Of a DNA stretch of 64,000 bases, positions 2,289 to 63,469 are shown piece after piece. Source of the stretch: Mobula birostris (Eukaryota); NCBI RefSeq assembly GCF_030028105.1, contig NC_092385.1, positions 77,142,747 to 77,206,746 of the forward strand, written 5' to 3'. Every line of letters starts with the position of its first letter. The stretch's first letter is position 1. A program made the position numbers and the translations under genes. A model generated the notes under the pieces. That model worked only from the letters and a program-made list of their open reading frames with translations, had not been told where the DNA came from and made no database searches.

Positions 2289-2905
2289 CTATTTTGAAGT
2301 AAAACGTTGTCTGTTACCATCGAGCAAGCAAAAACATCGAACTCTCCATGGATTATTTATATTCATTTTGTTTTAGAGTGTTGATGTAAAGATATTCCCA
2401 AGGATTGCATGTAGATGGTGTGATCCCAGACTTACAGCGTTCTTGAGTTTTCCAAGAAGCAATTTCAAGTCATTGTGCTAGCTTTGTATTTAAAAATGGT
2501 GCCACCTTTTTAGTTTCAATGTGATGTATCACAGTGTTCCAATAATGTGCTTAAGAACCAAGCCAAAAGAGAAATTTCTCCACATAACAACTATGACGAC
2601 TTGGACTGGTATTGAGACACCGTAATGTGCTACATTGAAACTACAAAGGCACCACCATTCCGAAGAGTAGGTACTCTGAAGTCAATATTTCAGTAAAAGA
2701 AGAATACTTCTGCAAGGATTATTGAAAATGTTATCCTGCTCATTTGCCCGTTATATAAATAAATCTCAGCCACAAAGCTTAAAGAATCAGTTTTTGGTAT
2801 TACTTAACTCTTTCATCAAGTGTCCAAAAGTAAGCTTATTCACATTTAGCTCTAAAAACAGATTGCATTGTTTTAGTGAGACAAACCAAAAACGAAATTT
2901 GTTAC

Positions 2906-3021
2906 CTCACTTCCACCTCTGGTTTATTATGCCGCTCCACCACCTGTGATGAGAAGTTTTCCAGACACAGTGCTGCTTGAAGGGTGGCGCGAACAGCATT
3001 CAGATATGGCCGAAGTGTAGC
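2906..3021 (-). CDS. ARPC4: ARPC4 coding exon 2
   Basis: [38 protein letters not shown](R); pyrimidine tract plus aag acceptor, gtaac donor; phase joins exon 3. Confidence 0.95.
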
Positions 3022-3164: not shown

Positions 3165-3637
3165 ACACAAGAGATTCTGCAGGGCAACACGTACAAAATG
3201 CTGGAGGAACTCAGCAGGTCAGGCAGCATTGATGGAAAAGAATGAACAGTCGATGTTTCCGAGACCCTTCTTCAGGATTGGAAGGGAAGGGGAAAGATGC
3301 CAGAATAAAAACTTGATAGCTGAAGCCAAGTGAGTGGTAGAGGTAAGAGCTGAAAAAGGAATCTGATAAGCGAGAAGAGTGGACCATGAGAGAAAGGGAA
3401 GAAGAGGGGCACCAGGCGGAGGTGATAGGCAGGTGAGAAGAGGAAAGAGCCCAGAGTGGGGAAAGGAAAAAAATACTAGAAGGCAAAAATCAACATTCAC
3501 ACTATCCTTCTTCCCCAGTCTTCCCTGCTCATTTTTAGTCCTGATGAAGGGTCTCAAGTCGAAATGTTGACTGTTTACTCATTTCCATAGATGCTGCCTG
3601 ACCTGCTAGGTTCCTGCAACATTGTGTGCGTGTTGCA
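3165..3637. mobile_element. Penelope-like element terminal repeats, inverted pair
   Basis: aaaatgctggaggaactcagcaggtcaggcagcat... at about 3195 and its reverse complement ending about 3635; hammerhead-like core at 3536-3573. Confidence 0.75.
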
Positions 3638-3744
3638 TTAGTACTTGTTGACAGTCATTAAAGACGACATTATTGAATAGACCAGAGTGAATAAGACCTG
3701 ATGCAACAACTAATGTGGAAATTTAGATAACTAATGGAGGGAGT

Positions 3745-25224: not shown

Positions 25225-25410
25225 TGTTCCTCATACAAAATCTCTGGAAGCTCGAATTAAGGAAGAACTAATTGCACAGGGTCTGTTGGATTCTGAGGAT
25301 CGTCCTACTGAAGACTCTGAGGATGAAGTTCTAGCGGAACTGCGTAAACGTCAGGCAGAACTGAAAGCCCTCAGTAGCCATAATCGAGCAAAGAAACAGG
25401 AACTTCTCAG
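25225..25410 (+). CDS. TADA3: TADA3 coding exon 7
   Basis: VPHTKSLEARIKEELIAQGLLDSEDRPTEDSEDEVLAELRKRQAELKALSSHNRAKKQELL(R); cag/gtag boundaries. Confidence 0.96.
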
Positions 25411-27014
25411 GTAGTGTAAAAAGGCTAGGTGAAGAATTCTGGATGCTAATGGCTTTGGGTGTGATGGAAGGTAACATTTTATACAGCACAGCTTTGAAGA
25501 ATGGTTGGTTGAGTGTATTTGGGCACTAATTTTTCTGATGAATATTTTATTTTCGGAGAAGTCACCCAAAAGCTGAGCACTTTCGTTAGCATATGAATAG
25601 GTAAGCGGGGGAGGGGGGGTTCCTGGGAAGATATAGAGTAGCTGAATGCAGGAATTTGGAACTAGCTAGTTGGACAGCATGGAGTGATTGAGCTGAAGGA
25701 CCTGTATCCGTGTTGTATTGTTCCATGACTCTAGAGGCTAGAGATTTAAGGTGAGAGTGAAATATTTGATAGGAACTTGAGGGACACTTTTTGAACACAA
25801 AAGGTGAAATCAGCTGCCGGAGGAAGTGAATGAGAATGGGCATTAATGATGGCTTCAATAAAAAAAGGGCTGAGAAAGAATTGAAGTATTACCAGGCCGG
25901 AGATAAGGTCCACCTCTGAGCAGGTAGTCGGGCTCAGAAGTCCCAGCTTGGAGACTAAGAGGACACAGAGGTTATAGCCATCTGCATGAATGAGATGGTG
26001 AGAGCCTATCAATAAACAAAACAACATCCAGTGAGCAGCCGTTCTGTGGGCAAGCATGCCTTGTTAATGTGAGGTCAGAGGAGAATGTTCAGACTGGTTC
26101 AGGCTGACAGGAAGGTGACAGTAACTCAAATAACCACGCATTACAACAGTGGTGTGCAGAGAGCATCTCTGAGCATACAACACGTCGAATCTTGAAGTGG
26201 ATGTAATACAGCCCACGAGCTATATTCAGTGGCCAGTTTATTAGGTAAAGGAGGTACAGTATGTGATAAAGTGGCCACAATGTATGTGTATCTGAAACTG
26301 AAAGTCATTTCTTTACCTTACATAATTATGTAGAATGAAGCAGAACACAGGCAGGGAGAAATGTACAACACTTGATTCCACTTACTTAACCTGTACCAAA
26401 TGAATAAAAAGTGTGAATTCTTATTGTATTTCAGTTTGATATATGGTGTTTTTTAAACTATACTTGGTAAATGATTCTTTTAATGAGAGAAGTTGCGTGA
26501 ATTAGTAGCTGGTGACAAAACAAGTAAATTTTGTGCTTCAGTATTTTCAAAAGTTAAAGCAGACTAATTTGAAAAATCAATTTTTTTTGAGTATTTAGGT
26601 AATTAGGACAAAAGCTTCTACCTGCATTTTTAAGAACAGTTACTCAGAGAACTGTCTACTTGAACTCTATGTTATATTTGGTTTGACACTTGATAGCAAT
26701 AACACAGTGCTCCAGACATAAAAGTACTGCATTTTGTAGTTTCCCAAATTAATCTTTTCCAATTTCCTGAGGAGACTGATCTAGAATCAAAATAATTTTC
26801 TGCTGTAAATAGATACTGAACCTTTAAAGGAAAATAGCTATGAAATGACACTTACTGAAATGTAACTGAACTGGGAAGTGTTCACAAATTTAACGTAGCA
26901 ACAAAAAATACTTTTAAAGATGCAGCCCTTTATCGTTAACATCAGTATTAGGCTGACCTTCTCTAGTGGTTCCCTACTTAACACAAGTTATCTGACTCAC
27001 TTATCCTTTTCCAC

Positions 27015-27830
27015 TGATTTCCCTCCTGGTACTTGTTTCTGCAAACATGACAAGTGCTACACTTGCCCCTACACCTCCTCCCTCACCACCATTCAGAGTT
27101 CTAAACAGTCCTTCCGGGTGAGGTGACACTTCACCTGTGAGTCTGTAGGGATCATCTGTTCTGTCCGGTGCTCCAAGTGCGGCCTCCTCTACGTTGGTGA
27201 GATCCAATGCAGATTGGGATACTATTGTTAAGCACTATTGCTCTGTCCAGTGTAAAACCGTTTACATTTTGACTTCCCGTTCCCATTCTCACGGGTCTTC
27301 TTCCCATGGCCTCCTCTACTGCTATGATGAGACCGAACTCAGTTTGAAGGCTTAGCACCTGATATTCCATCTGAGTAGCCTCCAACAACATCGTCATCAA
27401 ATTCTCTCTTTTCCGATAATTTATCCCCCTTCCTCTTCTTCCATTTCCCATCATGGGTGCCCTACCATACCTTTTCTTCTCCTTCGCGCCCATCACCTCC
27501 TTCTAGTAGCCCTCTTTCTTCCCTTCCTTACATGTTCCACTGTCCTTTGCTATTAGATTCCTTCCTCTTCAGCTCTTTATCTATCCCTTCCCAGCTTCTC
27601 ACTTCATCCCTCTCCTCCACCCATCCACTTTCCCCTTCACCTGTCACCTGCCAGCTTCCACTGCTCCCCCTCCCCTATCTTCTTATTCTGGATTCTACCC
27701 GCTTCCATTCCAGTCCCGATGAAGGCCCTCGGGCAACACATCAATTGTTTGTTCCCTTCCATAGCTGCCTGACCCACTGTGTTCCTTGATCATTTCACAT
27801 GAATGGCTCAAGATCCACAGAATCTCTTGT
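27015..27830 (+). mobile_element. Penelope-like element 3' part (GIY-YIG endonuclease plus terminal repeat)
   Basis: CKHDKCYTCPY...HFTCESVGIICSVRCSKCGLLYVGE, then a pyrimidine-rich spacer and the terminal repeat. Confidence 0.8.
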
Positions 27831-30235: not shown

Positions 30236-30426
30236 TATACCATTTATATAAGCAGTGCGAAGAGAGAGCAAAATTAGTGAGGCAGTGTCCGTGGCTTCAT
30301 TTTCCGTTCAGAGGTCTGACAGTGAAAGGAAAGAAGCTGTTTCTATAGCGTTGAGTGTGTGTCTTCTCAACATTTGATCCTCTTTCTCATGATAATAACC
30401 AACTCTGTATCTTTCTTTAAATCCAG

Positions 30427-30619
30427 ACTAGCCAAAGAGGAGTTAAAAAAACAGGAGTTACGACAACGAGTGAGGATAGCAGACAACGAAGTCATGGATG
30501 CCTTCCGGAAGATCATGGCAGCACGCCAAAAGAAACGAACGCCAACAAAAAAAGAGAAAGATCAGGCATGGAAAGCACTGAAGGAAAGAGAGAGCATCTT
30601 AAAACTGTTGGACAGTTAA
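30427..30619 (+). CDS. TADA3: TADA3 last coding exon
   Basis: LAKEELKKQELRQRVRIADNEVMDAFRKIMAARQKKRTPTKKEKDQAWKALKERESILKLLDS*; the spliced CDS is 1293 nt and in frame. Confidence 0.97.
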
Positions 30620-50459: not shown

Positions 50460-51588
50460 CACGAGGAAATCTGCAGATGCTGGAAATTCAAGCAACACAC
50501 ACAAAATGCTGGTGGAACGCAGGCCAGACAGCATCTATAGGAAGAAGCACAGTCGATGTTTCGGGCCGAGACCCTTCGTCAGGACTAATTGAAAGAAGAG
50601 ATAGTAAGAGATTTGAAAGTGGGAGGGGGAGGGGGAGATCTGAAATGATAGGAGAAGACAGGAGGGGAAGGGATGGAGCCAAGAGCTGGACAGGTGATTG
50701 GCAAAAGGAATACAAGGCTGGAGAAGGGAGAGGATCATGGGATGGGAGGCCTAGGGAGAAAGAAAGGGGGAGGGGAGCACCAGAGGAAGATGGAGAGCAG
50801 GCAAGGAGTTATTGTGAGAGGGACAGAAAGAGAAAAGAGAGAGAGCGAAAAAAAGGGGGAAAATAATAAATAAATAAATAAATGAATAAATAAAGATGGG
50901 ATGGGGTAAGAACAGGAGGTGGGGCATTAGCGGAAGTTTGAGAAGTCAATGTTCATGCCGTCAGGTTGGAGGCTACCCAGAAAGGTGTTGTTCCTCCAAC
51001 CTGAGTGTGGCTTCATCTTGACAGTAGAGGAGGCCGTGGATAGACATGTCAGAATGGGAATGGGACTGTCAAGATGAAGCTGCACTCAGGTTGGAGGAAC
51101 AACACCTTATATTCTGTCTAGGTAGCCTCCAACCTGATAGCATGAACATTGACTTCTCTAACTTCCGCTAATGCCCCACCTCCTCCTCGTACCCCATCCG
51201 TTATTTATCTATTTATTTATTTATTATTCTTCCCCTTTTTTTGCTCTCTCTTTTTTATCTCTCTGTCCCTCTCACAATAACTCCTTGACTGCTCTTCATC
51301 TTCCTCTGGCGCTCCCCTCCCCCTTTCTTTCTCCCTAGGCCTCCCGTCCCATGGTCCTTTCCCTTCTACAGCCTTGTATCCCTTTTGTCAATCAACTTTC
51401 CAGCTCTTAGCTCCATCCCTCCCCCTCCTGTCTTCTCCTATCATTTCGGATCTCCCCCTCCCCTCCCACTTTCAAATCTCTTACTACCTCTTCTTTCAGT
51501 TAGTCCTGACAAAGGGTCTTGGCCGGAAACGTTGACTGTGCTTCTTCCTATGGATGCTGTCTGACCTGCTGCATTCCACCAGCATTTT
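50460..51588. mobile_element. Penelope-like element, inverted-duplicate insertion with 17-bp TSD
   Basis: Arms about 50503-51024 and 51065-51589; GIY-YIG C-terminus CQDEAALRLEEQHLIFCLGSLQPDSMNIDFSNFR*; TSD ggatccattgatgtcaa / gggtccattgctgtcaa. Confidence 0.88.
50550..50587 (-). ncRNA. Minimal type I hammerhead ribozyme motif (best-preserved copy)
   Basis: UAGUC-CUGACGA-A-GGGUCUCGGCCC-GAAAC-AUC-GACUG: stem I, intact core, stem II and an NUH site. Confidence 0.65.
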
Positions 51589-54289
51589 GGGTCCATTGCT
51601 GTCAATAGGGGTTAGCCTGTTTCCATTCCTTCTGTAGTCCACAACCAGCTCCTTTGTTTTTGCAACATTGAGGGAGAGGTTATTTCCTTGACACCACTGT
51701 GTCAGGGTGATGACTTCCTCTCTGTAGGCTGCCTCATTATTATTTGAGATTAGGCCAATCAGTGTACTGTCATCAAGCAAATTTATTTAGCAGATTGGAG
51801 CTGTGGGAGGTGACACAGTCATGGGTATACAGAGAGTAAAGGAGGGGGCTTAGGATGCAGCCCTGAAGGGCAGCTGTATTAAGGGTCAGAGGTGAGGGAG
51901 CCCACTCTTACCACCTGCCGGTGATCTGACAGGAAGTCTAGGATCCAGCTACACAAGGCAGGCTGAAGGCTGAGGTCTCTGAACTTCTTGTTGATCCTGG
52001 GGGGAATTATGGTGTTGAATGCTGTACTGTAGTCCAAGAACAGCATTCTCACATAAACATCCTTCTTCTCCAGATGTGTAAGGAAGGTGAGCAGAGCTGT
52101 GGCTATTGCGTCATCTGTTGATCGGTTGGGTCGGTAGGTGAACTGTAGGGGTCCAGTGTGGGTGGTAGCAAGCTGCAGATGTAATCCTTGACCAGCCTCT
52201 CAAAGCATTCGCTTATTATTGAGCCAGTCATTCAGACATGTTATCTTGGTCTTTTTAGGTACAGGAACAATGGTGGGTGTGATTCACAAATTAAAATTCA
52301 CAGTTAAATTGATCAAAATCCTTGGTTGTAATACTTATTTATGTGAACGAAGGTTTGGGGGCTGAATAGTTTTCCAGCACACTGTTTTTATATGTACTGA
52401 ATATGTTTATAGTTGAGATGCATTCTATATTGAATTGGAGTTTATATCTAAGCAGGGAGGCATGTTGTGTATTTAATATTTCTGTAGTATTGTAAATTTA
52501 TTTGATTAAGCATTCCTTGTTTACATAATTCATTATGGGTTATATGTAAAAGTACGTGAATGGCAAGTGGCATCATGTCACCACGTCACCACATAGGTGG
52601 CTCGCTTAAAGTAAAAATGAAACTAAGGTACAAGCATTATGGACACCCATCTTTTTCTTTTAATTAGTTTTATGTTTGGAGTTACAAAGCATCTCAGAGA
52701 GTATATCTGAACACACTGCATCTTGAACCTTGAAGTAGATGGGTCACAGCAGCAGAAGACCATGACCATGAACACTCAGTGCCAGCTTTTTGGTTGCAGG
52801 TGGTACCTCAAAGTGGCTACCAAGTTTTGATTAAAGATGTTGAAAGTAATACTTATTCAATGTATAGGACACAGAGAAGCATTTACATCCCGTCTCAGTA
52901 TTATCTGCACTAGCATCACCTTGTAAGGTTGATCGACTGAGTTCCAGACTCAGGATATTCTTATGTGTTGCTTCAAGGTTTGAGATGTCTGTTTATATAT
53001 TCTGTTCAGTTTTTTCACGCTGCAAGCACTGTGCTCAGAGGTGTGCAGTGTATTGGATATCAAACTTTGGTTGTCTTTTTGTGAATTCTTCAGGAATCCC
53101 CTTTGATGTCTCAATCATGAGGCACTGACCTTGTCTCTCCTTATCCATCTTCTTTTTATCATGTATATTCATTATAAATAATTCCTTAACTATCCAAAGC
53201 TTCAGTTTGTTCTGATACTGACATTCCTGTCTCTCTTTACTCTGTCACCTTTGGTGTTAAGATAATCGCCGACACCTTGCCTCACTAACATATTAGACGA
53301 TATTTGTGACCACCTGTTCAGGCTTCGTCCATTGTTCCTTTATTTCTTTGCATCGTGTACCAATCTGACTATCGTACTTTATTTCTGCTGTCTTCTACAA
53401 CATAATTATTGCTATTGCTGTCCGAGTTAGTTAATACTAGATGGAAGATATAATTTTTCCCCACCTGTTTGACAAATGAAGCTTCCATAATAATTCAAAG
53501 TAAGTTACATTCTCATGGGCATAGCTGAACATTCTCATGGGCATAGTAGGTTACAGGTAAAATTAGAGGATGACATTGCTGTATGAGGCAGCATAAACTC
53601 AGTCAGCTGAACAGCCTCCTTCTATTTCATGAGGGAATTGAGAAACCAATGCTCCTTTTGTATTTCCTACAAAAGTTGCATTTTGCACCTTTTGCATTCC
53701 TTTGTGTAGTCTCTGCCTAAATATTTCATTTCATAATCATTGTGTTTTCTTGTAAATATTGTGATTCATTTATGTTTTTTTCTCTTGCGAATAGGGCTTA
53801 TATGTTACTATATGTCTGGGATGTTGCTGCAAGCGTTTTTCATCGCACTTGTCCATGACATTAAACTCGATATTGACTTTTCTTTTAAAACTTGTTTGAT
53901 GTAATCAAGCACATGCTACTGACATATTTGGATAAGTCTATTTACAGCAATTGGAAGTCTACATTTATTATCGGAGTCTTCTCAAGTTCAATTTTATTGT
54001 CATGGGAATACCATGAGAATGTGTTTTTTTGCAGCAACAGTACTGTATATTACACAAACATCCCTCCGTGTGTCGCGTGTTAACGCAAACAGAACATTAA
54101 ACTGCATGCTTCAATTTAATGAGATAAATACATCTGAATCTGAAATTATGCATAACTTACACGACCAAATAAACGCAAAGCAAACATAACAACTTCTCAG
54201 ATAAATGAAATTATCAATAGCGAGGGAGAAAAACGTTCTCTCTCATTCTTTGGTCGCCTGTTATCTGAAGAATGGTTCATTGATTCTCT

Positions 54290-54884: not shown

Positions 54885-54967
54885 ATGCCTCTAGGAGAGA
54901 TGGATAAAACATGGAAAAAGAAGGAGGAAATTAGAGTTGCGTACGAATTCAAGGAAGTCCTGGGAAC
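54885..54967 (+). CDS. CAMK1: CAMK1 first coding exon (calcium/calmodulin-dependent protein kinase I)
   Basis: MPLGEMDKTWKKKEEIRVAYEFKEVLG(T)|gtgagt, 83 nt, phase 2; acceptor tttttcag at 54855; matches CaMKI N-termini and TADA3-CAMK1 synteny; not in the ORF track. Confidence 0.88.
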
Positions 54968-57900
54968 GTGAGTACAATCCAAATGTTTATTGGGTTTTAA
55001 TCGGGTTTCGGGTTTAGGAATTGATTATATTTGTTTGTTGGAAGACGTTAAGATTTTGTACCAGGATCTGAGTGGAATCACATTCTAAAATATATGTCCT
55101 GCTGTCCTGCGAGATTGGCGAGAACGTCTCAAACTTCCGTAATTTCGAGGTTATTCTCTTTGAGCTTGAGTCTTAAAACGAGATGGAAGGGGGCCGTGTT
55201 TGGATCGGTGGCATCCTGATTCTACCTCTACAGAGAGCCGTTTCCAAGTTGGTTACACTGTGTTGTATGGATGGACCCCCGTGAGAAACAATGGTCGCCA
55301 TTGCGTTACTGCTGGGACATCTTCAGACTGATTAACTCGCCCATCTCACCAAGTACTTGGATTTACTGTCCTTTGACAAGCGAGAGTGACCTGGAGGGAA
55401 CGCCTGCAGCGACGCAGAGACAACTACTGAAGTACAGAATGCTGGAATTAAAGTTAGTTTAACAGGCAGACGAAAGCATTTTTTTTTCTAGTCTACATGC
55501 CACTATCATTATATCTAAGTGCCGAAGGAAAGTTGCAGCTTTGAAGCCTGTTAGGCTGACTTTAACTCCAGCGCCCAAAATTGCATCTTATCTTTATCAT
55601 AGGATTTAGAGAGAATTTCCAGAGACCGTTTAGATTACTTTAAATCTTTGGTTGCTGCATCTTTCTCAGCTATTGTTTTGTATCCTGAGGCACATGCTCA
55701 AACCTTTCTTATTCTTGCCACAGCACTGAAATCTTGTTATTGTCCTTCCTCATTTTGTGTGAGTTGTTGGTGTTGAAAATTGAAACCGTCTCCCCTCCAC
55801 TACGCAGCGGGTAGGACTACGTTTGGCGGGTTCAATTGAATTTTGTCTAGCCAAGGCTAAAGAATCACTTACAATGGTTTTCACCTCTGGAGCTTTACTA
55901 TTGTTCACCTTTCTCCACTCCCGTCACTACACTTGCGTTATCTTCACATCCACATGCTGATGCCCAGTAGTTGATTAAAAATGGCCAGCTCCATCAGCAG
56001 AACAGATCACACTCTCACCACTGCCTTGGGGAGGAAGTGCTGGAGCCTTAGGTCCCACACCATCAGGTTCAGGAAGTTATTGACCTGCAACCATCAGGCT
56101 CCTGAACCAGCGCGGGTAACTTCATTTACTTCAACACTGAAGTGGGTCCACAACCTATGGATTCACTTTCAAGGACTCCACGCTGATGTTTTCAGATTTA
56201 TTTATTTCTTTGTTTTTGCATTTTGCACAGTTTGTCTTTTGCATATTTGTTGTCAGTCAGTCTGTGTGTAGTCTTTCGTTGATTCTACTGAGAATGCCTG
56301 CAGGGAAACGAATCTCAGGGTAGGATATGGTGACGTATACATGCTTTGATAATAAATTTTCTTTGAATGTTGAATATGTTCCATTGAATACTGATATTAA
56401 TGGTATTACGTAACAAAATGTAAGGTGAGACTACAAGTTACATGTCTTACAAGAAATGTGAAACTACAAGTTTAGCCAAGAAGGGAATGTTAAGATTCTG
56501 GGCTTTGCCGGTTGGAGCTGCGGCTGCCCGTGGTAGAGTGATTGCTGGGATGGAATGAGCTAGCAGCCAGAATTAAAGGATGATGGATCTCTTGGATTGT
56601 AAAACAGCTGGGGGAGACGACAGATATGTTGAGCCTAGGAGCCTGGAAGCAGAGCTGAAATGTAAGATCAGGGTATGGCTTGACTGAGATTCAGTGTTGA
56701 TTAGCAAAAGTGTGATGAATGAAGGGGACAACATACAAAATATGGTAGCAGAATTTTGAATAACCTTAGGTTTGCGAAGAGTAGAATAAATGAAGCTGGA
56801 GTGTATCAGAGTAGTCCAACCAAAATGTAATAAAAGCATGAGCAAAATTTTCCTCAATTAAAAGTGGCACAGGCAAAAGACCGTTTTTTTTTCTATTCCA
56901 CACACAAATTTCCCTTTCCTATCTCCATCCATTTCTCTTATTACTGTTTTATAACAGGAAGATCAGTTGGGAATTTGTATCAGTTTCCATAACTATCTTG
57001 AACAGGTTATTATTACATTGAAACCCCTTTGAACATGATTCTGGTCTCTGCATATGTTTAAAAAAATCATTTGTAGAAAAATAATCAAATCTTAATTTTG
57101 TTTAGTCCCCACGTTTGTGTATAGAAACTCTACACTGCTAGTATGTTTGCATTGTGCTAGGCTGCAAATATTTAGTATTCCTTTTGAGCATTTTTCTGTT
57201 TCCAGTTCATATATTGCATACTTGTTTAGATCCACATGATTATCTTTAATTATTTCAAAAGACTCACAAATAGAGTCAGCCGAAGTGTCTGGCAGGCTAT
57301 GAAGAATTATCTTTTGTCTAACGGTTTTGCACAAACAGCACGACAAATATTCCATGAGCTGCTGAATTCATGTTTTTATTACAAAAATTAACCAAATTTC
57401 AAGTGAAGAGACCCTTGTTTCCAATTACTTGTGTACAATGCCCTTTAGGCAATAATACAAGAGAAGGGCGAAATCAAAATTGGAGAAAGAAATCACTGGT
57501 TGATTAGTTCTTATGAATAAAGTTTCATGCTGCTGAAAGACATTATGAACTCTATGTTTGAAGGCTAAATGGATATGATGTGCTCAGTTTGAATCTGGAA
57601 ATACAAGAGGTTCTGCAGATGCTGGAAGTCTAGAACAGCACGTTCAAAATGTTGGAGGAATGCAACAGGTCAGGCAGCATCTGTTGAAGAGGAATAAACA
57701 GTTGATGTTTCAGCGGAAACCTTTCATCAGCACATAGAATCTGAAAATGTGCTTTATGTGCACAGTTAAATGAAAGTAAACTCCATGTAATTTCAAACTG
57801 ACAATTGTCATGGACGTAATGGATGTACCAACCTTTGGAAAATAAAGATAAAAGGTGAAGATTTTATTTAAGCACCTGATAGCATTTATATTTGCAAGTG

Positions 57901-58679
57901 CAGACAGTAATAGCTTTTCTACTGTAGCCCTTAATCTGCTGTTCCTCTTAATATGAGATTTAACTTACTAAAAAGCAGGCTGTGATTGAAATGTATGAAA
58001 AGCATTCTATCCTGGATTTATCTGAAATGACATAGAAAATTAAATTATTGCTTAGTTGTTAAGGTAAATATAAAAACCCTCTGGGACAAGAATATTTGAT
58101 ATACATTTTTTTGCAATGCTGTTGTGATATGAAGCAGTTGAAATTGTTTACACGTTATTTTTAAAAGATCTGTCTTATTTGAAGACAGCTGATGTTTGCA
58201 CAATATAAATTGACTGCAGGACATGCAATACAAAGAATCTCAGGGTTGTATGTGGTGACATGTATGCACTGTGATTATAGATTTTTCTTTGAACTTTGGA
58301 AATAAAGTTCTGTTGCTGCACATTAAATGCTATATAATGTGACTTACACTGAAGGGTTAACATATCTTTCTCTTTGGCCAAGTTACAAAACATTCATTGG
58401 GGAAAATTCAATGAGCTGGAGAAAATAGAATTTTTAGCATAAAGAAAAAATGTTTTCCTTTAGTTTGTTCTCACTGGAAATGTTTTTTATTCTTTAAATC
58501 TAAAGGATTACTAAGTCTATTAATAAATCCTTTCTGCTTGCATCAGTGCCAATTTCTCTATAATTCCTACTCTTTGGATCACAGATATGTAAAAACAGCA
58601 TTGTTTTTACTTGATCTGTGTTCAACAAAATATAATTTAAAAAACACTTTAGTTGGGAACCTCTGTCTATCTGTTTCTT

Positions 58680-58703
58680 TCTCTCTCTCTCTCTCTCTCT
58701 CTC
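58680..58703. repeat. (CT)n microsatellite
   Basis: Direct observation. Confidence 0.9.
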
Positions 58704-59684
58704 TGTTGCTCTGTCTCTCCTTTCTCTATCTTAGCTTTTCTTGTCTTTTCTTCCTTTTTACGCACTGCCCTCTCTCAGAAAAATTGTGTCTTTATCCCCT
58801 TCAGCCTGTGGTTTCCAGTATATCCAGGACTCAATGCCTTTTTATTCTGGCACTTAATAAATTGATAGGAATTATTTTATTTGTTGTTTGTTTTAGTCTT
58901 ACCCACATTGTGTAGCTGACTATTGGAAATAGATATTATTTCTTAAGCTTCTTGCTTTTCAGCTTTTTGGCTGCACCCCAGCAGGTTAATGAGATCATCC
59001 GGCAACATCTGCTCTGTTCTCTCTTCCGCCCAGCGTGTTGACCAGGCAGTCTGCTTCTACCTGGTCTTCTCTCAGAAGCTGGCTGAGATCAGAAACTCAG
59101 TGGAAAGGGTGCTTAAAGCATGACCATTCTACTCTACATTACTGAACAGTCCCTGGTTATTTTCAATTCTGCGGAACTAAAATAATACTTATTTGCACGT
59201 AGGCTCCACCAAAGTATAGGTCAATATCACGGATACTCATCTCTGATTGAACTTTCCCTTCCTCCTCAAGACTAATAAACTGAGAGAGGCAATGCACTTC
59301 AGACAAAATCAAAGTTTGAAAACTGAGACCTGAGGTGACATTTACCACGTTTATACTTCAGCTTTGTTGTTGAGCTGGCCAGGAAATTATTCCAAGCATA
59401 TGCTTTTCATTATATTTTTGGTCTCAGTTGAAACATAGATACCTTGACTTTTAACACTGTTTTTAAAATTGTATGTTTTTGTGCATTCCGCTGTCCGTCC
59501 TCTTTACCAAAAAATTTTGATTTTTTTGCTTATCAGTGTTATGGAGACGACAGCAACATGCAGTTTTGCAGTATTCTTCTGTATAATCTACATTGTCCTT
59601 AGGCAATTTATCTGTTAATGTTCTGTTAATTTCCTAGCGCTGTCTCACAAGTTTCGGCCAGCTACTTTCTACCACTACATAGGA

Positions 59685-60145
59685 TCATATGACATAGAAG
59701 CAGAATAAGGCCACTCAGCCCATCAAGCCTGCTGTGCCATTTCCATCATGGTTGATTCATTATGCCACTTAACCCCATTCTCCTGTCTTCTCTGCGTAAC
59801 CCTTGATACCGTTATTATTCAAGAATCTATCAACCTCCGCTTTAAATATACTCAACGACTTAGCCTCCACAGCCATCTGTGGCAACAAATTCCACAGATT
59901 CACCACTCTCTGGCTAAAAATTTCCTCCTCATCTCTGTTCTCAAAGTACATCCTTCTATTCTGAGGCTGTGCTCTCTGGTCCGAGACTCCCACACTATGA
60001 GAAACATCCACTCTATCTAGGCCTTTCAATATTTGATAGTTTTCAATGAAATCTCCCATCATTCTTCTAAACTCCACTAAATACAGTCTCAGAGCCATCA
60101 AATGCTTCTCATATGTTAACCCTTTCTTTTCTAGGATCATATCCA
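59685..60145 (-). mobile_element. CR1 3' fragment
   Basis: EFRRMMGDFIE...FSQRVVNLWNLLP. Confidence 0.8.
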
Positions 60146-60827
60146 TGTACTGATCACAGAAATTAATAGATGATGTGCTTTTTTTCTTTCTTTATAACCC
60201 ATAACTTGTCTATAACACGAAAAGGTATGTAAAAATCCTTTTGATAGAGTTGCTTCTGGAGGTTGAATTTTAAATTTACATTTACACTTTGCTTGGAGCT
60301 GTTTTGTATACGGACACTTTTTTCATTGGGCTAATAATTTTGTTGAGACAGGGATGAGTTTCAAGAAATATTTTAACAATTGGATTTCGTTTGCCCTAAT
60401 TTTGTGTCCTGATTGGGACAGTGAAAGGGCAGACCGTTCAGGAAGAAATTGGAAATCTAAAAGGGACTTCCCAGGACTGCACTGGTTAGATGTCAGTGGG
60501 AATTATGCAAAGTAAAGTTATGATTCCTGAATTTAAAGGCAGAGAAGGGATGCTTCAGCAAAGTATTAAAGCACGATGAAGGTGGGCGTAGCAAAGGTAT
60601 TTCCTGTTGTTAGGGGCCCAAGGACTAAAGCCGCCTGCTGAAGGATCTGGGCCCAAAACGTTGACTGTTTACTCTTTTCCACTGACGCTGCCTGGCCTGC
60701 TGAGTTCCTCCAGCATCTTGTGTCTGTTGCTTTGATTTCCGGCATCAGCAGATTTTCTCTTGTTTGGGATTCAAAAAGATTAGAATCAGACTTTTCAGGA
60801 ATGAACTTAGCAAGCACTTCTATTTGC

Positions 60828-62205
60828 ATAGAAACATAGAAAACCTACAGCACAATACAGGCCCTTTGGCCACAATGCTGTGCCGAACAGTATTTACTTT
60901 AGAAATTACCTAGGGTTACCCATAGCCCTCTATTTTTCTGAGCTCCATGTACCTATCCAGCAGCCTCTTAAAAGACCCTATCGTATCCACCTCCACCACC
61001 ATGGCCGGCAGCCCATTCCACACACTCACTACTCTCTGCTTTTTTTTAAAGAAAACTTACCCCTGACATTTTCAGCCCTGGGAAAAAGCCTCTGACTATC
61101 CACACCATCAATGCCTCTCAACATCTTATACATCTCTATCAGGTCACTTCTCATCCTCTGTCGCTCCAAGGAGAAAAGGCCGAGTTCACTCAACCTATTC
61201 TCCTAAGGCACGTTCCCCAGTCCAGGCAACATCTTTGTAAATCTCCTCTGTACCCTTTCGATAGTTTCCATGTCCTTCCTGTAGTGAGGCGACCAGAACT
61301 GAGCACAGTACTCCAAGTGGGGTCTGACCAGGGTCCTATATTGCAGTAACATTACCTCTCGGCTCTTGAACTCAATCCCACGATTGCTGAAGGCCAATGC
61401 ACCGTATGCCTTCTTAACCACAGAGTCAACCTGCACAGCAGCTTTGAGTGTCCTATGGACTCGGACCCCAAGATCCCTCTGATCCTCCACACTGCCAAGA
61501 GTCTTACCATTAATACTATATTAATAAAGTATAGTATTAATTAATAGCTACCACTGCTACTATGCGATCGAGAATCTCTGGAGGGGAAGGCCCCAGATCC
61601 TCGGCTTTGCCTATTGCCTGTTGCCGGGGCCGGGGTCGAAGCACTTGGCAGAGATGGTGCTTGGTGTTTGGTGTTGGAGGGCTGGTCGGAGCCTTGAAGT
61701 TTTCGGGCGGACTCGAGTCGGCTGTGGTCTGGTGCTTCCAGGGTGCTGCATTGGCAAGTTTGCGGTGCTGGAAGCTCATGGCAGGGAGAGTTTTTCTTCC
61801 TTCTACTGTCTGCGTGAGATGATGGGACTTTCGAGAGACTTTGAGACTTTTTTTTACTGTGCCCATGGTCTGTTCTTTATCAAATTACAGTATTGCTTTG
61901 CACTGTTGTAACTATATGTTATAATTATGGGGTTTTTGTCAGTTTTTCAGTCTTGGTTTGTCCTCTGTTTCTGTGATATCATTCTGGAGGAACATTGTAT
62001 CATTTCTTAATACATGCATTACTAAATGACAATAAAAGTGGACTGCGTGTCCTCATAATCTAATCTAATCTAATATTCTGTCATCATATTTGACCTACCA
62101 AAGTGAACCACCTCACACTTATCTGGGTTGAACTCTATCTGCCACTTCTCAGCCCAGTTTTGTCATCCTATCGATGACAGCCCTCCACACTATCCACAAC
62201 ACCTT
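60828..62205 (-). mobile_element. CR1 3' fragment, split by a plus-strand retroposon at about 61535-62073
   Basis: DQRDLGVRVHRTLK...RPHLEYCAQFWSP; the insert has an (aatct)n tail. Confidence 0.8.
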
Positions 62206-63469
62206 CAACCTTGGATGGATAAATTTGGATATCTCTCAGCAAATTCCTGTTGATGCCAAGTCAATTTCTAATTTTCAATTTGTAATTGTTAACTGACAGC
62301 CAACAGAAAGGTTTACTCCTCTTATTGTGTATATCACTGAGAATTCCAGAATTTATTGTTTAACTTCCTTGCCATAGTGTGTTCCTTTTTGTGAACTAAT
62401 GCGTTCCCTTTGGTGAAAGTGCTCTCACAATGATACTGGTTCAGCAGTTCCAGAATTTAGATCACAGCAACCATAAAAGGATTGTGATACGTAGTTTGAA
62501 CACAAGACATTCTGCAGATGCTGGAAATCCAGAGCAAAACACACAAAATGCCAGAGGAACTCAGCAGGTCAGGCGGCATCAATGGAGAGGTATAGAGAGT
62601 CAACGTTTTGGGCCAAGACTCTTCAGGTGGACTTTGAAGGGAACCTAAAGGTGGTGGTATTTCTATGCGCTACAGTAGCTGTCTCAGTCCCCTTGGTGAC
62701 AGAGGTTGTGGAGCTGGAAGGGCAGGTGGAACAGCCTAGGAAGTCATGGTAGTTGTGGTGCTGAGCAAAGGTGCGATGGTGGATGGCGTTGAAATCGTGG
62801 ACGGGTTCGTAGTGGCGGATGCGATCGCATAGACGCACACTTCATTGTCTTTACTCTAGGCTTTCTTGGATGCTGTTGGAGTTGCACTCAAGTGGACAAG
62901 TCAGGTACCCCTGACAAATGCCTTATCGCGTGGAAAGGTTTTGGGAGGGTCAAAAAGTGAGTGGTACTTCGAGGGACTGAGCCTCAGGGTTGTTCTTAAG
63001 CCTCATCGTTTTTTGTGGCTGTGTCAACCAAGTCTCTGGTGGCGACCTTAGGATATTGTTGGTGGTAGAATCAGAAATGGTATTACCATTGAACATCAGC
63101 GTTAGGGGCCAGATCCTCTTTTTTTTGGGCTGATCGTTGCTTGGCACTGTAGTGGCATTATTGCAGTCCTGATGTAGGGTTCTCAGCTCAAAGCATCAAC
63201 TGTTTAATTCCCTCCAGAGCTGCTGCCTGACCTGCTGAGCTCCTCCACTGTATGTTGCTCAAGTGTTTAGCTTCTGCAGAATCTTTTGTGTTTGCAGTGA
63301 CATTATTGTTACTTGCCAGAATATTTCATGCAAGCATGTGCTTTAGAATTAGAAGCAAATAGAATTGAATATTGTGCATTGTGTAAGATCAACAACTTCT
63401 CATGCTAACTCAGATTTTCCTTTCTTTCTCCACGGTTGCTGCCCCACCTGCCTGCTCTTGTATTTCAGG

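Follow-up and report, generated by a model that had tools for sequence, protein, structure and literature searches.

Organization of the locus

The window, by which we mean the whole 64-kb stretch of Mobula birostris DNA analysed here, carries exons of three host genes interspersed with decayed ends of Penelope-like elements (PLEs; Table 1). Between positions 2165 and 55000 the genes follow the order ARPC4(-), TADA3(+) and CAMK1-like(+), which we take to be that of the human neighbourhood; the first coding exon of the CAMK1-like gene was assigned from PDB matches, 7/7 of which are to CaMK1/1D, though weak (E 0.05-0.6). The window also contains a 0.85-kb cluster of three tRNA-Pro(TGG) genes of identical sequence recognized by Rfam (41107-41178(+), 41564-41635(+) and 41881-41952(-)), with two genes inverted and a PLE end (41310-41412) lying between the first two.

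Table 1. Coordinates of host exons, PLE remnants and hammerhead motifs in the window
Feature	Position	Strand	Basis
ARPC4 exons	2165-2296, 2884-3021	-	
Two decayed copies, 3182-3279(-) and 3536-3643(+)	3182-3643		profile
TADA3 exons (Ada3 domain)	25232-25423, 30425-30586	+	
Decayed copy, core broken	27712-27796	+	profile
Small fold-back of two element ends, 44384-44435(-) and 44470-44576(+), core disrupted	44384-44576		profile
Older non-LTR RT (LINE) relic, with the PLE inserted within it	49966-51907	-	Pfam, translation
Target-site duplication, left copy (17 nt)	50443-50459		read from sequence
Inverted PLE insertion, left arm	50460-51068	-	repeat listing, alignment
Focal minimal type I hammerhead motif (38 nt)	50550-50587	-	sequence reading, folding and dimer energies
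Inverted PLE insertion, right arm	51069-51588	+	alignment
Second hammerhead copy (right arm)	51501-51538	+	sequence
Target-site duplication, right copy	51589-51605		read from sequence
CAMK1-like first coding exon	54885-54968	+	
Four older decayed copies, 57629-57733(-), 60634-60736(+), 62527-62633(-) and 63165-63260(+)	57629-63260		profile

Some 4.3 kb upstream of the CAMK1-like exon, the focal copy sits within an old LINE relic whose frame resumes beyond the PLE target duplication and whose domain matches comprise a weak RVT_1 upstream (E 0.13) and an ALKBH8_N-type domain downstream (E 1e-7). It belongs to a single insertion with two inverted, decayed arms, which are identical at 471 of 512 aligned bases and are flanked by target-site duplication copies that match at 15/17 positions. 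Within each arm the GIY-YIG C-terminus, stop, 3' UTR, hammerhead and tail share one strand. The left arm contains the last part of the GIY-YIG ORF, in which a short deletion shifts the frame (stop at 50927-50929), then a pyrimidine-rich 3' UTR, the hammerhead and a tail extending to about +95 beyond the cut; the right arm contains the GIY-YIG C-terminus (about 51067-51168), a stop at 51169-51171, the 3' UTR, the hammerhead and a shorter tail (about +55). Both arms are about 78% identical to the young full-length element described below and hence belong to an older subfamily. Pfam returned no match on the GIY-YIG stubs of the window itself (31-48 aa), and the link to this domain was established via longer copies elsewhere in the genome.

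The focal hammerhead retains stem I (5 bp), the CUGACGA core, the unpaired A, stem II (4 bp), GAAA and the G10.1-C11.1 pair, with a predicted cut between 50555 and 50554. Its stem III self-complementary tetramer is broken because G16.2 has decayed to A, leaving it devoid of the palindromic 15.2-16.2. The hammerhead of the right arm is dead as judged from its sequence, with G8 changed to A in the core, 11.1 to G and C17 to U. As the two motifs occupy opposite strands, they could form no cis dimer on one transcript.

Searching with a profile built from four window copies, we obtained 24 matches at E<=1, of which 23 have E<0.01; the reversed window gave none. The hammerhead segment is present in 17 of these 24, some of them being both arms of one fold-back insertion, and this hammerhead-bearing repeat accounts for many entries among the 20 largest listed families of direct repeats in the window. 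The first-pass annotation had quoted five positions as examples of the motif, all of which carry it on inspection of the sequence, and had described no copy in the window as perfect; indeed, 0/17 segments retain an intact core together with intact stems and the stem III CG. An Rfam scan of the window, in which all copies are decayed, recovers no hammerhead family even at E<=10, the three tRNA-Pro genes being its only matches. Other PLE remnants include a fold-back of the tail part alone, without hammerhead (49217-49357), and more diverged PLE endonuclease remnants at 26986-27219 and 43491-43745 (+), which are 31-37% identical to unnamed PLE proteins.

The same annotation had assigned relics to introns of ARPC4, TADA3 and CAMK1. 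This holds for TADA3, where the copy at 27712, sense to the gene, is the sole one in the window bracketed by located exons of one gene. For the other two it is only likely, as exons were located on just one side of the copies: the two copies upstream of the ARPC4 exon 2884-3021 are likely in intron 1, and the four older copies lie downstream of the first coding exon of the CAMK1-like gene. For the focal copy, upstream of this exon, an intronic position is not indicated. The copies being decayed, no effect on the host genes is indicated.

Abundance and consensus of the repeat

In 44 arbitrarily placed 10-kb stretches of the genome we recovered 84 matches to the repeat, against 0 in the reversed control, which, scaled to the whole genome, corresponds to roughly 770,000 element ends (Poisson range 610,000-950,000, clustering ignored). 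The bare hammerhead core with a 13-nt spacer occurs 73,261 times in the 4.0-Gb genome versus 41 times in the control, and the exact 35-nt consensus 5,734 times versus 0. The earlier proposal that the genome is seeded with very many ribozyme relics is thus borne out, and the consensus claimed from the window alone coincides with the per-column majority of the 84 sampled matches. This majority comprises stem I (AGTC/GACT), CUGANGA, one unpaired A, a 4-bp stem II with a tetraloop and GAAA-CG-UC, so that neither the catalytic core nor stem I, whose loss would have told against a hammerhead, is missing. The palindromic 15.2-16.2, with which an intermolecular stem III is possible, is found in the family majority and in the 73,261 copies. 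Of the variants ATC and GTT, which had been read as the two expected decay products of a CpG, both are CpG-derived but from two different adjacent CpGs rather than one. Core positions keep the majority base in old and young subfamilies as well as in unrelated PLE families; conservation downstream of the motif equals that of the core in the 84-match sample.

The full-length element

At 15 loci chosen by the presence of the GIY-YIG C-terminus, one of them the window itself, the motif lies 269-383 nt downstream on the same strand in 15/15, and both pseudo-LTRs of full-length elements carry it, in agreement with the Penelope identity suggested at first pass. A search with the N-terminal part of the ORF gave 6,283 first-look candidates, of which 150 were scored and 80 long stretches examined. 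Of these, 47 stop short of the ORF start and 33 reach it; among the latter, 14 extend through a complete upstream hammerhead, and the starts of the others lie at -31 (1 copy), between +4 and +31 (3 copies) or deeper in the element (15 copies). The RT-EN region has a median identity of 96.6% among 76 long copies.

Locus L205 is a full-length example: a single 1,089-aa ORF with RT, CX4CxxC linker and GIY-YIG lies between two direct hammerheads that are 3,735 nt apart from cut to cut. Its ATG follows the upstream cut by 139 nt, and its stop precedes the downstream core by 299 nt. Its RVT_1 match (E 2.8e-5) is under the curated cut-off, and the GIY-YIG domain, when the last 151 aa are excised, scores 24.1 bits against a Pfam cut-off of 22.6. 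The homologs of the element carry both PF00078 and PF01541, and the C-x4-C-x2-C linker between RT and EN is seen in the translations of L037, L038 and L205. The RT is 88% identical to a protein of Mobula hypostoma and 66-70% to proteins of Chiloscyllium, while a PDB sequence search with the full ORF gave no match at E<=0.01. These features support its identification as a Neptune-type EN+ Penelope-like element, the putative clade being placed by motif alone.

Several further observations bear on the variety of this family. Residues about 190-360 of the L205 ORF form a duplicated proline/serine-rich repeat, which differs in copy number between elements and is missing from the invertebrate-type homologs compared; the cut-to-cut lengths near 3.5 and 3.7 kb may exist because this repeat number varies. 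Four loci (L101, L108, L053 and L035) represent a sister subfamily with the same core but a different 3' UTR and stem II loop. Three long PLE ORFs at G000:C1:35281270, 35324271 and 35367261 are spaced by almost exactly 43 kb, which suggests a segmental tandem triplication.

The motif as a structured hammerhead

The family majority has the hallmarks of published minimal hammerhead ribozymes (min-HHRs): the CUGANGA and GAAA core, a UH cleavage site, type I order, an unpaired base between 9 and 10.1, a stem I of 4-5 bp and a stem II. Within the main family no clear compensatory change was found in stem I or II, the search returning almost only CpG decay. Other families in the same genome keep the hammerhead core with longer, different stems (83 matches versus 13 in the control, with a search pattern that forced G10.1 and C11.1), and between families stem I switches from AGTC/GACT to TGCA/TGCA. 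In 14 copies of one such family (family B), stem II is paired in 92.9% of cells and holds all 12 double-sided changes, as compared with 0/500 shuffles and 0-2 in slid controls, and stem I is paired in 71% of cells with no double-sided change. Among these matches, the loci L145-L174 comprise at least two hammerhead-bearing PLE-like families other than the main one, with a 6-7 bp stem II and a different stem I; some of these copies have GIY-YIG-like remnants upstream, recognized by eye in translations, and extend only about 40-50 nt beyond the motif.

Folding calculations predict stems I and II in the 38-mer but sequester the core in a helix of 4 bp formed with the GUC strand (P 0.91-1.0). With 100-nt flanks the probability of stems I and II falls to 0.17 or less, being 0 for two copies with U11.1 and 0.11-0.17 for one with C11.1. 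For a C11.1 copy the double-hammerhead fold has an energy of -16.7 kcal/mol versus a dimer minimum of -34.1 kcal/mol in ViennaRNA, which ignores tertiary core contacts, so that these dimer energies are not decisive. Among viroid hammerheads, metastable folds without activity are described in the accessible text of PMC1636495. We also considered a rewired, non-circularly permuted hammerhead and set it aside: no alternative in-cis cleavage strand was found closer to the motif, and the distance to other GUH sites followed by a stem I partner is hundreds to thousands of bases. The repeat is confirmed as the minimal type I hammerhead motif of a PLE pseudo-LTR.

The G10.1·U11.1 allele

Of the exact copies of the motif, 22,656 have U11.1 (G·U) and 5,734 have C11.1 (G-C); CpG decay on the opposite strand accounts for another 1,414. 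U11.1 is found in 82 of 88 motifs of the long loci selected by ORF, is accompanied by a linked downstream marker in 91 of the first 100 U11.1 copies listed and by a linked upstream marker in 8/16 copies, as against 0/21 with C11.1. Both the excess over opposite-strand decay and the linked markers rule out mere CpG decay as the source of U11.1. As U11.1 travels with these markers, it follows that a master element fixed G·U at a highly conserved pair. A younger subfamily is not indicated, the nearest-neighbour distances of U11.1 and C11.1 copies being 0.022 and 0.029 (16 versus 21 copies, P=0.62).

A G·U pair at 10.1-11.1 reportedly weakens hammerhead cleavage, a finding attributed to Tuschl & Eckstein in 1993; the literature searched yielded no quantitative data on this pair. 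The dominant subfamily is thus predicted to carry a weakening change. We raise, tentatively, the possibility that the most prolific branch expanded after its master had fixed G10.1·U11.1 on a C7 background that strengthens the inactive core helix, with cleavage being dispensable or costly and the motif kept mainly as an RNA 5' start or protein-binding signal. If so, a retrotransposon that turned down its own hammerhead nonetheless multiplied to tens of thousands of copies, and nature would have shown in vivo that PLE hammerhead cleavage is dispensable or costly. With thousands of near-intact elements, the genome offers a test system for the function of PLE hammerheads, and since two natural alleles at a conserved pair differ greatly in copy number, cleavage rate can be compared with transposition success.

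Copy ends and the state of the RNA template

We mapped the ends of 264 young copies (at least 88% identity), a non-random set in which many loci were chosen by hammerhead pattern or ORF. Their 3' ends concentrate at two sites past the predicted cut, with 39 at +67/68 and 35 at +102/103, and none falls within -6 to +4 of the cut; of their 5' starts, 2 are at 0/+1 and 5 within ±4 of it. The two 3' ends, 35 nt apart, correspond to the PLE tail. Because none of the copies ends at the cut and only two start there or one base after it, the RNA templates were likely uncut. The Poseidon element PAc of Anolis carolinensis, in which RT starts at two internal sites according to the accessible text of Frangieh et al. 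2024 (PMC11167929), has the same two-end pattern, from which we infer initiation on a mostly uncut template in the ray as well. Hence, insertion templates would mostly be uncut and the predicted cleavage likely mostly bypassed.

These observations can be brought together in a reading that we consider probable: the repeat is the pseudo-LTR of a Neptune-type PLE, the window copies are decayed, 5'-truncated and predicted to be dead, reverse transcription would start internally on uncut RNA, and intact motifs would cleave weakly as dimers in a manner dispensable for insertion. The element protein would nick DNA and start reverse transcription at the two internal sites, 35 nt apart, on RNA left uncut at the hammerhead. 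From intact motifs no more than weak cleavage would be expected, with the two pseudo-LTR copies acting as a dimer and the element protein probably assisting; it would be a minor or late processing step that insertion does not require. Small PLE-associated hammerhead variants reportedly cleave as dimers, going by the title of a 2017 study by Lünse, Weinberg & Breaker. The window copies would be 5'-truncated insertion products, catalytically dead by prediction.

Competing explanations

The motif could alternatively be a catalytically vestigial DNA or RNA signal, such as a promoter, start site or protein-binding hairpin, in which the hammerhead letters persist by descent only. We regard this as unlikely, even though the 5' starts favour the front edge of stem I as if the RNA began there: 19/264 fall at -32/-31 versus 9 over -40 to -33, and in a further sample 15/64 lie within -28 to -40, a pile-up that may mark either an RNA start or a fold-back point. 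The tolerance of U11.1 by the dominant subfamily and a downstream sequence as conserved as the core would also fit such a signal. What counts against it is the retention of the core majority bases across subfamilies and unrelated PLE families with a covarying stem II, together with the Anolis motif, which cleaves with protein and shows C3G/G8C rescue in the accessible text of PMC11167929.

Slightly less probable again is efficient in vivo cis-dimer cleavage, after which the released unit is re-ligated to a circle and rolling reverse transcription yields partial tandems, as modelled in the accessible text of PMC4209133. The arrangement it needs is there, since 13 paired elements have two direct hammerheads 3.5-3.7 kb apart on one RNA, and re-ligation would hide the cut, with copies also running through the cut site. 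Minor alleles recur in both pseudo-LTRs of one element more often than chance predicts (34 versus 13.7 expected, P=0.004), but such sharing is expected under any model, and the within-element excess is absent from a smaller set of 7 pairs, two of them false. The 13 pairs have 37 discordant versus 30 shared-minor states, including a segregating transversion at +18 discordant in 3/13 elements; a single circle does not predict these, though tandem homing or gene conversion could account for them, and the 13 pairs overall are compatible with a circular as well as a linear template. The scarcity of starts at 0/+1 (2/264) and the G·U at 10.1-11.1 in the dominant subfamily argue against efficient cleavage.

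A separate non-autonomous retrozyme or SINE family replicating via the hammerhead is highly improbable. Many copies are just 100-140 nt long, fold-back forms are common, and retrozymes are reported from one chondrichthyan genome in the accessible part of bioRxiv 2026.07.22.740005. Yet the short copies are colinear with the pseudo-LTR of the autonomous element and have the same two 3' end sites, their 5' ends run as a continuum into the ORF, and no head-to-tail hammerhead arrays were noticed in the window or the loci examined. Chance resemblance to a hammerhead, for which one could cite the shortness of the motif and its lack of an Rfam match, has next to no probability and is ruled out by the 73,261 versus 41 core matches, the fixed position in the pseudo-LTR and the agreement with published min-HHR features.

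Comparison with known systems

The class of motif, its position in the pseudo-LTR and the idea of a dimer are already published. Cervera & de la Peña 2014 (PMC4209133), in the text accessible to us, describe min-HHRs in the pseudo-LTRs of metazoan PLEs, including Neptune, Poseidon and Xena of fish, and the ray motif shares with them the type I order, lack of a stem III loop, palindromic 15.2-16.2, unpaired base between 9 and 10.1, stem I of 4-5 bp, and occurrence mostly as single truncated copies with some close opposite-strand pairs. It differs, by the same text, in its stem II of 4 bp versus the 7-8 bp of Schistosoma min-HHRs, in the G·U pair of its dominant subfamily versus the "highly conserved" G10.1-C11.1, and in its 73,261 core-intact copies versus about 4,000 in the coelacanth and 9,000 in Xenopus, counts obtained with different search methods. 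We came across neither shark nor ray entries in the text and two supplements of PMC4209133, and the literature searched yielded no description specific to rays, although further supplements may cover cartilaginous fish.

With Anolis PAc, as portrayed in the accessible text of PMC11167929, the ray element shares an ORF with RT and GIY-YIG, partial tandems, an absence of ends at the cut site, and a hammerhead upstream of two RT start sites that bound a 30-40 nt tail. The Anolis hammerhead cleaves only with protein, and its HHR mutants still insert. Unlike PAc, whose hammerhead overlaps the ATG, the ray element has its hammerhead 139 nt upstream of the ATG, and its ORF has the Neptune/Nematis-type CX4CxxC linker and an N-terminal proline/serine-rich repeat. 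The function of PLE hammerheads is an open question in the accessible text of Craig et al. 2021 (PMC8557442). With the Neptune-clade PLEs described there, the ray element has in common the C-terminal GIY-YIG, a CX2-5CxxC linker (shared with Nematis), pseudo-LTRs carrying the HHR, an inverted 5'-truncated copy and a one-sided tail of 30-40 bp.
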